In this document: piece by piece, positions 2,771 to 56,671 of the stretch
Layout: every line of letters begins with the position of its first letter
How positions within the stretch are numbered: position 1 is the stretch's first letter
Source: Dictyostelium discoideum
Taxonomy: Eukaryota
Direction of reading: 5' to 3'
DNA: 64,000 bases
NCBI GenBank assembly: GCA_000004695.1
Contig: CM000150.2
Span: 1,984,001-2,048,000 of the forward strand
Program-made: the position numbers and the translations under genes
The notes under the pieces: generated by a model
Database searches by the model: none
What the model was told of the DNA's origin: nothing
The model's input: the letters and a program-made list of their open reading frames with translations, nothing else

Positions 2771-3084
2771 TTAATTATCTTCATCATCATCATCATCATC
2801 ACTATTTAATAAAAAGTCTTTAATTTCATTTTTAAGTTGTGATGTTGTTAATAATTGTTTTGAATTCTCTTTAATATATGGTGCTATATTTGGAGTTGAT
2901 TTGAAATCTCTATAAAGGATTTTACAACTATAACATAATGTTTCCTTATTTACTGTAATTGATGATGTTGATGTTGATGATGATGATGAACAACAACCAG
3001 TATTATTATTATTATTATTACTACTATTATCTTCAGTTTTATTACAACATGATGAATCTTCTGTTTTTGTTGTTGAACAACATC

Positions 3085-3124
<40 letters not shown>

Positions 3125-4565
3125 TTTATTTTCTTTATTGATATTATTATTATTATCCAATATAACCTTTTCTAAACTTTTAATTTCTGCACTTGTCAAT
3201 GGACTATATATATATATATATATATTTATATTATTTTAAAATTTTAAATTTTATATTTTATATTAAATTAGTAAATAAAGGTTAATTATTATTATTATTA
3301 TTATTTTTAGAATAAATAAATAAATAAATTACCTTGAACAAATTGAACAATTATAATTTGAATCAATTGAAGGAGAAATTAATTTATCAACAGATCTTAA
3401 TAAAGTATGAACGGTTTGATTTGAAATATCTTGAAGACAATGTAAAAAGTCTTCACAAAGAGTATTAATTGAATGTTTTGGTTTCAAATTTAATATTGAA
3501 AACATTACTGGTACTGGTAAAATATTTAAATGTCTATAATAAATGAAAATTTCTTTTAATAAGAAATCTCTCATTGGTTGATAAAATTTAATATCATCTG
3601 TATAAAAAAAAAAAAAAAAAATGTTAACATAAATAATAATAATTAAAAAATATTAATTAATTAATAATATTAATAATAAAAAACAACTTACTTGATGGTT
3701 GTTCAATTATAACAGAAGTCTCATTTGGTACAGAGAAACCTCTACCTTTTGAAGTTGATGCAACTAATTGTACAGCTAATCTATTTGAACTTGTACCTAA
3801 TATAACTTTTTTACAATTTAATTTATGAGCTACTTGAATTAATAATTGATTACGATAGTAGAGTAATAAATCCTCTTTTGAAGTTTCAGAAGATAATTGA
3901 GCAAATTGTAGTTTCAATTGGTTGGTTCTTTCACCCAATGGTGTTACAGTACCGAGGATATCTTCCAATGGGATGATTTCTAAATTTGGGAAACCAAGTT
4001 TAACATTATTAAATTCTTTTAAGAATTCAATTGTATCATTATGATTTTGGTATGGTGTAATTGAAGACTCATCAATGTGGACACACTTTATATCCAAAAA
4101 CATCTTTGCCTTACCACTACCCTCAGTACACTGTTTCAATAATTCCAACAACATTGATGAACATGTGCCACCTGATAAAGCAACTAATAATTTCTCTGCA
4201 TCTCTTTTACTCTCTCTAACTTTAACAATATTCAATTTAAACTTTTTCAAAATTAATTCTCTATAACATTCCCAACATAATTGTTCTGATCTAAAATTAA
4301 TAATTGGTTTACCAATTGGTTTTTGTTGTTGAGTAATTGGTTCTTCATTATTATTATTATTATTTTCTTCTTCTTTTAATTTTTGTTCTTTTTTTTCTTT
4401 TTTTGAAAGTTTTTTATCTTTTACATTATTTGCAACATTATATAAACATTTTACACATTGAGTATTACCATTTGGTATGATTTGAACTTTTCTTGTATTA
4501 ATTGGTATAGTATTATTAATATCATTATCATTAATACCACATGATGGTAATTCTTCTGATGACAT
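2771..4565 (-). CDS. ctu2: Cytoplasmic tRNA 2-thiolation protein 2 (Ctu2/Ncs2 homolog). CDS is join(4565..3692, 3597..3333, 3203..2771) on the minus strand, 524 codons.
   Basis: The N-terminal CVKC...CWECY zinc-ribbon motif is followed by AEKLLVALSGGTCSSMLLELL (PP-loop-like SGGxxS). This matches the CTU2 pattern CVKC...CRDCF...LLAWSGGPSSSSM. A C-terminal LCYSCK motif is in the last exon. Both introns have GTAAGT/GTAATT donors and AG acceptors, and the phases are consistent (874+265+433 nt = 1572). Confidence 0.6.
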
Positions 4566-6917: not shown

Positions 6918-7418
6918 ATGTCTGAAGTTGAAAATTCAAATACAGTGGATTTACAATCACAATTATTACCATTAGAATTAATTGAAAAATGTATTGGTTC
7001 AAGAATTTGGATTGCAATGAAAAATGATAAAGAATTTGTTGGTACATTATTAGGTTTTGATGCTTACGTTAATATATTTTTAAAAGATGTTACTGAATAG
7101 TAAGTTTTTTTTTTAAAAAAAAAAAAAAAAATAATAAAAATAGATTCATTCACTCACTCACACACACAAATAATTAACTATTAACCTTTTTTTTTATACC
7201 ATAATTAATCATAGCGAATATACTCCAGAAGGTTTAAAAACAGTTAAATTAGATAATATTCTTTTAAATGGAAATCATGTTTGTTTGGTAAATATAATAA
7301 TAATAATTATTCTAATTAAAATAAATATCATAATTGAATAATAATATTAATTTTACTAATAATTTTATTATAAATTTAGCTTGTTCCAGGTGGTGAAGGT
7401 CCAAAAGTTAAAGCATAA
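6918..7418 (+). CDS. lsm5: U6 snRNA-associated Sm-like protein LSm5. CDS is join(6918..7099, 7215..7287, 7380..7418), 97 aa.
   Basis: The protein [97 protein letters not shown] closely matches LSm5 (LLPLELIDKCIGSRI...GTLLGFDDFVNMVLEDVTE...TPEGRR...LVPGGEGP). Introns are GTAAGT..AG and GTAAAT..AG with consistent phase. Confidence 0.75.
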
Positions 7419-9860: not shown

Positions 9861-10225
9861 ATTTTGAAAATAAAAATAAAAAACGATGGTTATTGTTTTT
9901 GATTAATCGTTTTTAAATGAATTTAAAAATAAAAAAAAAAAAAAAAATGAAAAAACGAAAAATTGGATTTTTATTTTTTTTTTATTTTTTTTATTTTTAA
10001 TTTTTTTATTTTAATTTTACATTTTTCATAATCATTTGTAAGTAATAGTTATTATACTTTTTGATTTTTTACCCCCTTAATGATGACTAATTAATTTTAT
10101 TTAATTTTATTTTTATTTTAAATTTGTATTTACATTTTTTTTTTTTTTTTAATTTAATTTTTAATTTTTTAATTTTTTTTTTTTTTTTAATTTTTTTTTT
10201 AATTTTTGGATTCTTTTTTTCCGCA

Positions 10226-10284
<59 letters not shown>

Positions 10285-10315
10285 CTTTATTCGATTACAT
10301 AGAAATTGATTAACA

Positions 10316-10923
10316 ATGCCACCAAAACCTACATACGTTAGTGGGGGTAGTGTTACTCAAACAGGTAGAAGTAAATGGAGATTATCATATATTCCTGAAT
10401 TTATTTGGGGTATTTTAAATCAAATAACTTTTTTGTAAGTATTTATATATTTATATATATTTTCATTGTTATTATTCTTTTATTAACATATACATATATT
10501 TTTAGCTTCTCAACTTTAATAGGTGTAGGTTAAATTTATTTAGGTTTTTTTTTTTTTTTTTTTTTTTTCTTTCAAAATTAAGAGATTATATATATTAATT
10601 ATAATTAAATTAAATATATTTAGGGTACAGTTGAACCTAGAAGACGTCCAAATAACCAAGGTGGAGGTAGAAGATTAGCAGGATTTGATGGTAATGGTAA
10701 TGTAACAGGTGGAAGTGGTGTAGGTGGTAGTGGTCCAAGTAAAGGTCCAGATAATGGTTCAAATAATAGAAGAGGTGACATGAAAAATATTTGTATGTAT
10801 TTCCTTTTTTTTTTTTTTTTTTTTTTCTATTATTTTTTTTTTATTGGGTATTAATTGATCATTGTTTTAAATTTAATTTTAGTGGCATGTAATTCAGCTT
10901 CAGGATCTTGAGGTCCGAAATAG
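10316..10923 (+). CDS. selK: Selenoprotein K (SelK). CDS is join(10316..10434, 10506..10524, 10624..10792, 10883..10923), 115 aa. The in-frame TGA at 10909..10911 is read as selenocysteine.
   Basis: N-terminal SKWRLSYIPEFIWGILNQITFFFSTLIG matches the SelK motif SPWRLSLITDFFWGIAEFVVLFF. A Gly-rich region follows. The C-terminal ...NSASGS-U-GPK, then a TAG stop, matches the SelK GG-U-GR ending. Four exons with GTAAGT/GTAGGT/GTATGT donors are phase-consistent, including a 19-nt micro-exon. A good SECIS lies in the 3'UTR (see next feature). Confidence 0.7.
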
Positions 10924-52491: not shown

Positions 52492-52839
52492 TTTTTATTA
52501 TTTTTAATGATTTTTTATTCTATTGAGGTTATAATTTATTTATTTTTATATATTTATTTTATTAAAATTTGGTTCGTACCAAAAAATAATTTTTATTAAC
52601 TAAAGGTATTTTTTTAAAAAATTCTAAATAATGACTAACTTTTTTTTATATAAAAAAAAATTATTTTTACCAAAAAAAAAAAAAAAAAAAGAAAATAATA
52701 ACTTATAAATTTTATTTTTAAATTAATTTTTAAAATATTAGCTATTAATTATTAATTATTAATTATTATTATTATTATTTCTATTGCTATTATTTAATTT
52801 AATTGATAGGAAAAAAAAAATACTAATGGCAACGAATTT

Positions 52840-52882
<43 letters not shown>

Positions 52883-53024
52883 AGGAATTGAATTTAGTTA
52901 GAAATAAATTTAACTAAAAAAACACATGTATAATATTATTTAGTCGTCCAAATTATAACAATGGTAAATTAATTATTATTATTATTATTGTTATTATTTT
53001 AAAAAATTATTAATATTAAATATG

Positions 53025-53084
<60 letters not shown>

Positions 53085-53399
53085 ATAATGTTTAAAAAAA
53101 AAAAAAAAAAATAGATTTAAATAAATATTGGAGGTAAATAGATTTTTTTATTGTTAAAAATAAATAAAAATGAATATATAACAACACGAGTAATAATAAC
53201 AAAAAAAAAAAATAAAAAAAAAAAAAAAAAAAAAATAATTAAAAAAAAAAAAAAAAAAAAAAAAAATTAAAAAAAAATAAATAAAATTTAAAATAAACAT
53301 AAATAACTATCATTATAATGTAAATAGTGTTGTTTTATTCATACTTTTATCTCACTTACTAACTCTTTAAAAAAAAAAAAAAATTATTATTATTTACAC

Positions 53400-53885
53400 A
53401 CAAAAAAAAAAACACAACACACCCACATTACTCCCAAAAAAACAAACATACTCACTATTAAGAATATACGATATAATTGTTATATGTTATCTCTATTAAT
53501 TTATTTTTATATATTAAATACAAATAAACATATTCTCAACATTAATTCAAAACAAAGAATTGTATAATATGATATTTCTTAAAAATTAAAAAAAATAAAA
53601 AAAATAATTGTGATATTCCTCTTCACTAAAATTGTTTACTATATTGATGTAAAAAGTGTGAGTGTGGGTGTGGTAGTGGTGGGGTAGTGGTGGGGTATTA
53701 TAAATTAAAAAGGAAAAATTGAATTATTATGATATTTTCCCAAATACTCTGCTTAAATCTATATAGTAATTTCAAATATATATTTAGAAATGTTATTTGA
53801 TTTTTTTAATATTACAAAATACATACTCACACCACCACATATTATCACATATTACCACATATTACCACACACACCCAAACGCTCA
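53400..53885. promoter_or_regulatory. Cluster of CA-rich and GT-rich islands of alternating polarity in a gene-poor AT desert. Includes an inverted pair, gtgtgagtgtgggtgtggtagtggtggggtagtggtgggg (53645-53695) and ccacacacacccaaacgctcacacc (53855-53880).
   Basis: Read directly from the sequence. G-box/CA-element-like runs of this kind are the binding sites described for the Dictyostelium G-box binding factor (established knowledge). Assigning that function here is inference. Confidence 0.3.
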
Positions 53886-55495
53886 CACCATGAATTTAAT
53901 GTTAAAATATTATTAATAATAATAATAAAATAATAATAATATTAATGACAATTTAAACAAAAAAGTTTAACAAATATAAATCTATAACTTTTATTGATTG
54001 TGGGTTATTGTTGCTATTTTTAATATCTTTTTTTTTTCTAAAAATAGAAAAAAAAAATTTTAAAATTAAGATACAACAAGGAAAACCACTTAAAATATCG
54101 AATTTCGAAAATAATTGTATATAGATAAATTGAAAATTTATTACTTATTACTATAAAACATATTAAAAAGTATTTTTTTTTTTTTTTTTTTCAAAAATTC
54201 ATTTAAACCTGTAATACAAAAAATATTTTAATTCTTAAAAATGTGCCAACATTTAAGAAATTATCAAAAAAATTGAAACTTTAATGTTATCAATTTTTAA
54301 AATATTAAAATAAAAAAAAAAAAAAAAATTTTTTACTTAAATATGTTTAGAAAAAAAAAAAAAAAAAATTTTAATAAAAAATGATTCAGATCAGATTTTA
54401 AAAACGTTATCATTTTTTTAATTAAAAAAAAAAAAAAAAAAATAATAATACTTATCAATTTTTTCTATTTAAAAGTTTTGTAATTGGAATACTGAAATGA
54501 TGTTTTACAAAAATCGAAAATGGTAATATCTTTATTTTTTTTTTTGGTTTTAAATCTTTTATCAAAAGAATAAAAAAACAAATTCCAATCTACTATAAAA
54601 ATACATACAACCCCACTACTATTTTTATATTTATTTTTTTTAAACCAAAAAAAAAAAAAAAAAATAAAGAAAAAAAATAAATTAAAAAAAGAAAAAAAAA
54701 TATGATGTAATAAAAAAAAAAAAAAATTGTTTTTACTCTTTTTGATCATTAAAATTAAAAACTAGATAAAAAAAAAGTAAAAATTAAAAAAAATAAATTA
54801 ACTTCATTGAACAACCTATATAATAATTTTACCATTTCAAGTTCATACTTTTACTTGTGGTAAACAAATAATAAAATATTGTTAAATAAATCACAATTTT
54901 ATGTAATTTTTACTTTTTTTTTTTTTTTATTTTTTAATTGACAATTTATTCAAATAATTCTTTTTTTTTTTTTTATTTTAATTTTCAACCTAAATATTCT
55001 TTTTAAAATCTATTTTATTTGTGCACCAATAGTAATATTCAAAAATACTTTGTTTTTTTTTTTTTTTTTTTTTTACTAAAATAGTATTTGTTTTAAATAC
55101 AAAAAAAAAAAAAAAAAATTTGGTTTTATTTAGTGAGTAAATGAATTTTTAAACGAGAAATGTGTTTTAACACATAATATTCGTATACGAATATGTGGTA
55201 TTGTGAGTGTGTGAATTAAAAAGTTTTTTTTTTTTTTTTTTTAGTTTTATTCAATTATTTAAATTATTATTTTTCATATTATTTTTATTATTTTTAATTA
55301 TATATATATATAATTGTTTTTTTTAAATAAATAACCGATAAAATGGGGTGGGGTGTGACCAAATTTTAAATATTATAGGAAATCTAAATTTATTTAAATG
55401 GTTGTTTTTTAAACATTAATGAAAATAATCAATACATGCGCTCATTCCACAACACTTTCCTTTTTATAAAAATAAGGGTTTGTTTAATTTTTGTG

Positions 55496-55542
<47 letters not shown>

Positions 55543-55883
55543 GTGGGAATGTATGAGTAGTAATTATTGTGGGTAACCCAATAATACTTTCTTTCATTCA
55601 AATTGTAAAATATGTTTGAAAAGAAAGAAAAAAAGTAAATAGAAATAACCATCAAATTGCATATCACACCTACCAAATTATTTTTAAAAATTGGTGGTAA
55701 ACTACATTTTTGGAAAAAGCTTAATTATTGCTTATTCTCTCATTTGGAAAAAAAAAAATTACAAAATTATTGAAATTCACATAATATATTTACTATTTTT
55801 TATGAGTTTATAATATTGAATAAAGTTGATTTGAAATTCCTTATAAATTAAAAAATTATTTTAAATTTTTTATTTTCAATAAT

Positions 55884-55923
<40 letters not shown>

Positions 55924-55945: not shown

Positions 55946-56220
55946 ATGACAATTTCAGGTAAGTTTATTTTAAATTTTATTTAAAATTATAATAATAATA
56001 ATAATTAAAAAACTAATTTTGATTAAAAAAAAAAAAAAAAAAAATTAATTATAGGTTTATTAAAGAATTTAAGTTTTAAAAATATTTCGAATAATAAAAT
56101 TCTTTTAAACAATGAATATATCTCAAATAATAGTAATAAATATGGTAAACAAGAATTAACAGAAAGATTTTTTGGTGGTGGTGGTTTTTCATATAGCCCT
56201 AAAGGATTAACCCCACATTA
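55946..56220 (+). CDS. Small two-exon gene P1 (59 aa). CDS is join(55946..55958, 56054..56220).
   Basis: A 13-nt first exon ATGACAATTTCAG is followed by a GTAAGT donor and a TAG acceptor. The protein is MTISGLLKNLSFKNISNNKILLNNEYISNNSNKYGKQELTERFFGGGGFSYSPKGLTPH. It is the mirror paralog of P2. Confidence 0.4.
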
Positions 56221-56366
56221 AATATTAAATTAAATTTATTTAATTATCTATTTATTTATTTATTTATTTATTTTAAGATTAAAAAAATCTGTTGTAATTT
56301 TATTTAAATAAAGAAAAAAAAAAAATTTTAAAAAAATATTTATAGTTTTTTTTTTTTTTTTTGTTT

Positions 56367-56401
<35 letters not shown>

Positions 56402-56406
<5 letters not shown>

Positions 56407-56671
56407 GTGGAACTATACCCTTAACATCATAATAACAAGATTGTTGAAACTCATAAATATTATTGATTGAACATTTTTGTACATGTACTTGATCATTTTT
56501 TTGAACAGTTAAATTTAAAATATTTACAAAGTTATTTAATTTATTTAATTTTAAAATATTAAAACTATCTATTATTTAAAAATAGTTAAAAAAATAAATT
56601 TTTAGTTGTTAATAACCAATTTAATCTTTAATTTATGATTAAAATAAAAATAACTTACTAAATATAGTCAT
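56402..56671 (-). CDS. Small two-exon gene P2 (59 aa), convergent paralog of P1. CDS is join(56671..56659, 56568..56402).
   Basis: A 13-nt first exon ATGACTATATTTA is followed by a GTAAGT donor and an AG acceptor. The protein is MTIFNSFNILKLNKLNNFVNILNLTVQKNDQVHVQKCSINNIYEFQQSCYYDVKGIVPH. The exon lengths (13+167) are the same as P1, and both share the MTI start and the KG(L/I)(T/V)PH end. Confidence 0.4.

Follow-up and report, generated by a model that had tools for sequence, protein, structure and literature searches.

In Dictyostelium discoideum, about 100 genes of the hssA/sigN type are recognized by a hallmark structure, in which a 13-nucleotide (nt) first exon is followed by a phase-1 intron (PMC6198379; PMC2257962). 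Among 96 sigN-like genes, 89 have a 13-nt exon-1 open reading frame (ORF) that starts with MT[IL]x, together with a single phase-1 intron (PMC2257962). A study of Mef2A describes a separate group of "small proteins (57-59 aa), prestalk specific", for which its authors see no significant similarity to hssA (PMC3640940). Here, we analyze two small genes, hereafter P1 and P2, which lie tail to tail within a 64,000-nt stretch of D. discoideum DNA (contig CM000150.2, positions 1,984,001 to 2,048,000 of the forward strand), referred to below as the window. The reading that we favor, with reasonable though not full confidence, is that both are real, narrow-lineage protein-coding genes, which form a two-member mini-family of their own with hssA-type architecture, go back to an inverted local duplication, and include one gene, P1, that is expressed late in development. 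The new part of this picture is minor, namely a distinct two-species, two-gene mini-family sharing only its 5' module with the hssA/sigN genes; the architecture itself has already been described.

The pair was first noticed from the letters alone (the sequence-only reading), as convergent genes with products of 59 amino acids (aa), 13-nt first exons, GTAAGT donors, phase-1 introns, 167-nt second exons, and a separation of 180 bp. All of these coordinates are correct (Table 1), and the two stop codons are separated by exactly 180 bp (56222-56401). The spliced product of P1 is MTISGLLKNLSFKNISNNKILLNNEYISNNSNKYGKQELTERFFGGGGFSYSPKGLTPH and that of P2 is MTIFNSFNILKLNKLNNFVNILNLTVQKNDQVHVQKCSINNIYEFQQSCYYDVKGIVPH. 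P1 is identical (100%, full length) to DDB_G0268750 (XP_646927, Q55EU3) and P2 is likewise identical (100%, full length) to DDB_G0268752 (XP_646928, Q55EU2), both from chromosome 1 of D. discoideum AX4. Two genuine two-exon small-protein gene models are therefore supported by an exact match to the AX4 annotation. Both genes were already in the public annotation, each named only "hypothetical protein", and the sequence-only reading is a rediscovery of existing models from raw sequence. None of the alternative AG acceptors of P2 yields an ORF longer than 32 aa. Because P1, P2, and their two orthologues described below all lack an internal methionine (0 in all four proteins), the start codon of each ORF depends on the spliced 13-nt exon. 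The pattern ATG-N10-GTAAGT occurs at three sites in the window, compared with 0.22 expected, and two of the three are P1 and P2. The third site, at 7087-7105 (+), reads ATGTTACTGAATA followed by GTAAGT, and may be either a further 13-nt first exon or a chance occurrence. The window has ~22% G+C on average, with very long A/T runs and short GTAAGT...TAG introns.

Table 1. Positions of the P1 and P2 gene parts and of conserved non-coding features, numbered from the first letter of the window.
Feature	Position	Strand	Description
P1 exon 1	55946-55958	+	13 nt, ATGACAATTTCAG; M-T-I-S plus one base of codon 5 (phase 1)
P1 intron	55959-56054	+	96 nt, GTAAGT...TATAG, 5% GC; D. firmibasis counterpart 192 nt
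P1 exon 2	56055-56221	+	167 nt including TAA stop
P2 exon 1	56671-56659	-	13 nt, ATGACTATATTTA; M-T-I-F plus one base of codon 5 (phase 1)
P2 intron	56658-56569	-	90 nt, GTAAGT...AATAG
P2 exon 2	56568-56402	-	167 nt including TAA stop; adjoins T35 run of + strand
Upstream conserved block	55636-55790	+	~160-310 nt upstream of P1 ATG; putative cis-regulatory DNA
TATA-containing element of P1	55827-55853	+	TGATTTGAAATTCCTTATAAATTAAAA, TATAAAT at 55842; 26/27 positions identical in D. firmibasis; putative promoter
Gap block	56260-56321	.	Between the stops; exact D. firmibasis matches of 26 nt and 39 nt

Word-indexed searches with P1 and P2 returned only the two proteins themselves. A HMMER profile built from P1 and P2, run exhaustively against 1.84 billion representative proteins, gave one further real match, the 57-aa D. 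firmibasis protein RB653_007370 (E = 3.7e-9). The search for homologues called for by the sequence-only reading thereby led to the same convergent arrangement in a second species. On D. firmibasis chromosome CM069769.1 (locus L001), the P1 orthologue occupies 10001-10366 (+) and encodes 57 aa, and the P2 orthologue, a called gene with a 62-aa product (MTLLNSLNILNLNNKNIILTIFDKSGQKNYQSNVQKSSTCYDFQKCYEGGYHFNDVKGIVPH), occupies 10521-10797 (-). The two are 154 bp apart, and both have a 13-nt first exon, a GTAAGT donor, and a phase-1 intron; exon 1 is ATGACAATTTCAA in the P1 orthologue and ATGACCTTATTGA, encoding MTLL, in the P2 orthologue. The surrounding locus is collinear with 46-63 kb of the window, where the neighboring genes encode a UBX protein, an AFK-type kinase, a lipase, and a GH47 mannosidase with 75-96% aa identity between the species. 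Finding the same convergent pair at the syntenic place implies that it predates the split of both species.

In all four genes (two species, two paralogues each), exon 1 has 13 nt and encodes MT[IL]x, the intron is in phase 1, exon 2 spans 161-176 nt, and the ORF ends in KG[LI][TV]PH-stop. The second exons measure 161 nt and 176 nt in D. firmibasis compared with 167 nt for both genes in D. discoideum, and the equal lengths are a coincidence of D. discoideum, not a conserved trait. No further copy of the mini-family was found in the window or among the 1.84 billion representative proteins, where no other D. discoideum protein matched the profile at E ≤ 1e-3. Within the 64 kb, the patterns ATGACNATNNNNNGTAAGT and AARGGNNTNNNNCCNCAYTAA each occur solely at P1 and P2 (0.00 expected); having been derived from the pair itself, they show merely the absence of a third copy.

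In architecture, P1 and P2 are of the hssA type, whereas the sequence tests do not place them in the PF05710 family. Like hssA/2C/7E family genes, they have a 13-nt MT[IL]x exon-1 ORF, one short phase-1 intron with a GTAAG donor, and a single exon 2. The likeness extends to products of fewer than 120 aa, to the local opposite-orientation pairs or clusters in which members often occur, to developmental regulation, and to restriction to dictyostelids. The gene plan was also checked on DNA: P1, P2, and both D. firmibasis orthologues have 13 nt and then GTAAGT, and two tandem D. firmibasis hssA-like genes (locus L002) start with ATGACAATTTTAT+GTAAGT and ATGACAATCTTAA+GTAAGA. Unlike in the family, exon 2 has no detectable similarity to that of the members, the products have 59 aa compared with 76-93 aa, and the C-terminus is a KG[LI][TV]PH of their own. 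Furthermore, P1 expression peaks at 20-24 h, whereas sigN groups 1 and 2 are reported to peak at 10-12 h (PMC2257962). Exon-2 sizes of 167 and 170 nt found no match among the 96 sigN-like genes in the supplement of PMC2257962, whose exon-length counting is inconsistent. P1/P2 may be linked to the hssA superfamily. As a side observation, the two hssA-like genes of L002 lie at 1696-2069 and 3001-3346; the upstream one encodes 91 aa, ends ...SCGCH, and carries the family core SLSMGSNSVACGGCGGG, and it has no precomputed Pfam hit on record despite this clear core.

Two other classes of genes invite comparison. The 57-59-aa group of the Mef2A study, which includes DDB_G0283501-519, resembles P1 and P2 in size class, in having no significant similarity to hssA, and in consisting of developmentally induced D. 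discoideum genes. However, neither P1 nor P2 is on that list, and the group belongs to a 14-h rapid-induction list, while P1 rises at 18-22 h. No member of the group was among the matches of the P1 and P2 profile (E ≤ 1e-3). Orphan, fast-evolving small ORF genes are alike in being confined to two close species, in their high dN/dS (ratio of nonsynonymous to synonymous substitution rates) and narrow or low expression, and in having no domains; unlike them, P1 and P2 have a 5' module that matches a large pre-existing family. This suggests that a gene plan already in existence was inherited or captured, and that the genes were not born from scratch. One way in which such capture may have come about is that the 13-nt MT[IL]x exon and its phase-1 intron constitute a reusable 5' cassette, which would have been copied from an hssA/sigN-type gene and joined to a previously non-coding or unrelated AT-rich stretch as a new exon 2, with inverted duplication to follow and with retention for no less than the time since D. 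discoideum and D. firmibasis diverged. We consider this sequence of events an outside chance. If it were true, the locus would be a documented case of new small-protein genes that came into being by taking over the 5' module of a family already present.

The sequence-only reading held that a conserved gene structure combined with a diverged interior points to an old inverted duplication. The age is upheld by the presence of the pair in D. firmibasis, and duplication is the simplest origin, but gene structure has lost some of its force as evidence specific to the pair. Because the architecture is found genome-wide in about 100 hssA/sigN genes, it is weaker evidence for a pairwise duplication, and the equality of the second exons does not extend to D. 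firmibasis (161 and 176 nt). The interior is indeed strongly diverged, as had been noted. P1 and P2 are 24% identical without gaps, with invariant M1, T2, I3, K54, G55, P58, and H59; the shared MTI start and KG(L/I)(T/V)PH end were read correctly. An hhalign comparison of the two orthologue pairs aligned the last nine residues only (P = 0.013), the P1 and P2 profiles did not find each other in reciprocal exon-2 hidden Markov model (HMM) searches among 1725 ORFs, and local-alignment shuffle P values ranged from 0.009 to 0.2. Alignment of the P1 locus with the P2 locus at the DNA level gave no residual similarity, only AT-rich noise. A GG-aromatic stretch before the C-terminal motif is present in the D. 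firmibasis P2 orthologue (GGYHFNDVKGIVPH vs GGFSYSPKGITPH) and has been lost from D. discoideum P2; it lends paralogy a little additional support. The case for paralogy appears to rest on the two termini, the architecture, and adjacency, the interior similarity not being significant, and this counts against a duplication. Given the stop-anchored six-residue motif, the common start, the common gene plan, and adjacency in two species, we regard an inverted local duplication before the D. discoideum/D. firmibasis split as the probable, albeit not proven, origin of the pair.

Both polypeptides (~6.5 kDa) consist of an N/K-rich N-terminal stretch, a variable middle, and the conserved C-terminal KG[LI][TV]PH. 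The contrast between a Gly-rich P1 and a P2 with two cysteines separated by ten residues, as drawn from the sequence alone, needs correction. P1 does have a GGGG run, yet glycine makes up just 7 of its 59 residues, and the cysteines of P2 (C37 and C49) have 11 residues between them. The P2 orthologue of D. firmibasis does not keep this spacing, its cysteines being C40 and C46. Pfam scans gave no domain in P1, P2, or the D. firmibasis P1 orthologue at E ≤ 10. Single-sequence AlphaFold2 models have low-confidence pLDDT (predicted local distance difference test) scores of 63 and 52, with an N-terminal helix at low to moderate confidence. An amphipathic N-terminal helix in common with hssA was considered and rejected, as the hydrophobic moments are not above those of shuffled controls. 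By eye, the polar N-terminus has no hydrophobic stretch resembling a signal peptide.

Several features of the comparison between the species suggest that the ORFs are maintained as such. When the D. discoideum coding sequences were mutated neutrally to the observed divergence of ~22% per site, the ORF was still open in only 3-5% of simulations per gene, and the joint survival of both is roughly 0.1-0.2%, with indels, the ATG, and the splice sites uncounted. All four ORFs are open, the length differences between orthologous second exons are net multiples of three, and the ATG, GT, and AG are retained in four of four genes. The C-terminal motif is encoded by AAA GGA TTA ACC CCA CAT in P1 and AAG GGT ATA GTT CCA CAT in P2 of D. 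discoideum, and by AAA GGA ATA ACC CCA CAT and AAG GGA ATT GTT CCC CAT, respectively, in D. firmibasis. KG[LI][TV]PH is thus kept across paralogues and orthologues even though the codons for K, G, I, and P differ synonymously. We conclude from these comparisons that the ORFs appear to be under weak yet real protein-level constraint, mostly at both ends, that is, in the first ~20 residues and in KG[LI][TV]PH.

Transcript data for the two genes consist of gene-level RNA sequencing (RNA-seq) counts. In filter development, DDB_G0268750 has ~0 raw reads through 16 h, after which the two replicates give 5/29 reads at 18 h, 28/124 at 20 h, 178/288 at 22 h, and 95/200 at 24 h (Rosengarten et al. 2015, PMC4403905). 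The gene is among the listed up-regulated genes of that study and shows no induction in suspension development (PMC4403905). For DDB_G0268752, no time point has more than 8 reads, and the few that there are come from 20-24 h (PMC4403905). The transcript support that the sequence-only reading had made its test was accordingly obtained by halves, as late-developmental reads for P1 and almost none for P2. In the full-text papers searched, neither gene identifier is named, though two supplementary tables list them; PMC9117722 and PMC3188802 have no entry for DDB_G0268750 or DDB_G0268752. According to the cell-type RNA-seq of Kin et al. 2018, the two genes have ~0 transcripts per million (TPM) in cup, stalk, spore, and vegetative cells. 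As to the induction in prestalk, stalk, and cup lineages that is a trait of hssA genes, P1 goes up at 18-24 h on filters, yet its level in cup, stalk, and spore cells after purification is ~0 TPM, and P2 is nearly silent. The P1 time course and the cell-type data are therefore in tension, possibly because expression at culmination is transient, because the expressing cell type was not sampled, or because very short genes are hard to quantify.

A substantial body of evidence speaks against coding function and must be set against the above. Between the orthologues, aa identity is 71% for P1 and 57% for P2, far below that of the neighboring genes. At dS ~0.3, dN/dS is 0.74 for P1 and 0.73 for P2, values which, with ~55 codons each, are indistinguishable from neutrality. 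Nucleotide identity is 77-78% in exons and 74-83% in introns and flanks, meaning that the exons are not better conserved than the DNA around them. The annotation of D. firmibasis used the D. discoideum proteome as MAKER protein evidence, and since its models may have been seeded by homology, they are not independent proof of transcription. To this are added the ~0 TPM in four cell types and, for P2, the near lack of reads together with an upstream region of poor conservation (69% identity), as would be expected of an almost silent gene. One or both ORFs may accordingly be non-functional, as over-predicted or decaying models that drift near-neutrally and are intact in D. firmibasis only because the species are so close. 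The idea is most plausible for P2, which never exceeds 8 reads per time point. It is harder to reconcile with ORFs that a neutral simulation leaves open so rarely, with exon-2 lengths that differ by multiples of three, with start and splice sites kept in all four genes, and with a C-terminal motif conserved through synonymous changes. For P1, there is in addition a clear induction at 18-24 h, and there are conserved promoter-like and poly(A)-signal blocks around the gene. In our judgment, the evidence for coding carries more weight than the contrary evidence, substantial as it is, and we rate non-functional ORFs as unlikely.

Still less likely, in our view, is that P1 and P2 do belong to the hssA/2C/7E family (sigN; PF05710) and have diverged from it to an extreme degree, each descended as a whole gene from an hssA-type ancestor. 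Such descent would account for the 13-nt exon-1 ORF, the MT[IL]x start, and the single phase-1 intron found in 89 of 96 sigN-like genes and in L002, for products of fewer than 120 aa, for the late-developmental expression of P1, and for a C-terminal histidine, which many members have in the ending CGCH. The sequences themselves do not bear it out. PF05710 ("Coiled"; gathering score 21.4 bits) gave no match at E ≤ 10 to P1, P2, or the D. firmibasis P1 orthologue, compared with 64-68 bits for approximate hssA-like controls. With hhalign, the alignment to six genuine hssA members covered residues 1-7 only, at a probability of 1%. Run against 1729 sequences, an HMM of these six members gave the four proteins E values of 83-340. 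P1 and P2, with 0-2 Cys, 3-7 Ser, and a PH terminus, lack the LSMGSNSVAC..C core, the richness in Ser, Gly, and Cys, and the CxC[HN] end, all invariant in the six members. The N-terminus gives a mixed picture: in common with that of hssA, MT[IL][LF]S-x-[IL]-T-S-[IL]-S, is MT[IL] plus a hydrophobic residue 4 in P2 (F; L in D. firmibasis), and an HMM of the N-terminal 24 hssA columns did not rank the four proteins above random ORFs. Moreover, NCBI names the real members "hssA/2C/7E family protein" and P1 and P2 "hypothetical protein".

The best conserved DNA of the locus is non-coding. Over a block of ~150 nt (55636-55790) upstream of P1, conservation exceeds that of every coding part of the locus, with exact D. 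firmibasis matches of 53 nt (55703-55755) and 26 nt (55759-55784). This block was considered as a small RNA gene, a proposal that found no support: there was no Rfam match at E ≤ 1 in 55636-55790, RNA folding showed no excess over shuffled sequences (z = 0.13 and 0.69), and only one compensatory pair distinguishes D. discoideum from D. firmibasis. It is probably cis-regulatory DNA and may act as a late-culmination element. In the conserved block of the gap between the genes, the palindrome TTTATTTAAATAAA (56299-56312) places AATAAA on both strands; the window has it nowhere else, and L001 contains it as well. The palindrome is probably the poly(A) signal of P1, and P2 possibly shares it as a bidirectional 3'-end signal. 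The only inverted repeats in the 180-bp gap are of low complexity, an A-run against a T-run. The conserved blocks around P1 support it as a regulated transcription unit.

This distribution of conservation lends some appeal to the view that the functional products are transcripts and not peptides, acting either at the transcript level, as has been reported for hssA, or by mutual regulation through overlapping 3' ends at the palindromic AATAAA. A frame-shifted hssA still suppresses the target phenotype (summarized in PMC6198379), the palindrome lies conserved within the gap, and dN/dS is near neutral. We nevertheless give this view little credence, because ORF, start codon, and splice sites have survived to a degree that neutrality would not predict, the C-terminal motif keeps its amino acids while its codons change synonymously, there is neither an Rfam match nor excess RNA folding near the locus, and P2 is so little transcribed that it would offer little substrate for antisense interplay.

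Returning to the favored reading of two small protein-coding genes, the following scenario can be proposed. An inverted local duplication before the split of D. discoideum and D. firmibasis most likely produced the P1/P2 pair. Each gene follows the hssA/2C/7E gene plan (13-nt MT[IL]x exon, phase-1 GTAAGT intron) and carries a second exon encoding an unrelated, fast-evolving polypeptide. P1 appears to be switched on solely in late development (18-24 h, culmination), from the conserved TATA-containing promoter, and P2 is nearly silent in all the conditions sampled. The N-terminal stretch is weakly predicted to be helical and the two ends appear constrained, and translation may yield a stable peptide. 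Because no signal peptide is apparent in the N-terminus, our working guess is that the product may be a small developmental peptide that acts at culmination, either inside the cell or after unconventional release, in line with proposals made for sigN/hssA-like genes.

The stakes of these findings are modest, and current understanding is not overturned. The hssA/sigN gene plan reaches beyond the family that profiles recognize, and counts of about 100 genes may understate the class of small developmental genes. As a syntenic pair in two species, with one gene induced at culmination and the other almost silent, P1 and P2 offer a clean example for the study of how very small, fast-evolving genes are retained or lost. 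The conserved blocks around P1 are candidates for a late-culmination promoter.

Some further observations concern the surroundings of the pair. Long homopolymers flank P1 and P2, namely ~A42 (55500-55541), A34 (55888-55921, just upstream of the P1 ATG), and T35 (56369-56403, abutting the P2 stop). The lengths of such runs vary between D. discoideum and D. firmibasis and are the source of most alignment indels. Between the AFK-type kinase gene and P1, ~3.4 kb (window 52500-55900; 4 kb in D. firmibasis, L001 5935-10000) are without a called gene, which we judge long for a gene-dense genome (the reported gene density of D. firmibasis is 70.6%). Late induction is common to P1, the kinase gene DDB_G0268748, and DDB_G0268756, and one list of up-regulated genes contains all three.

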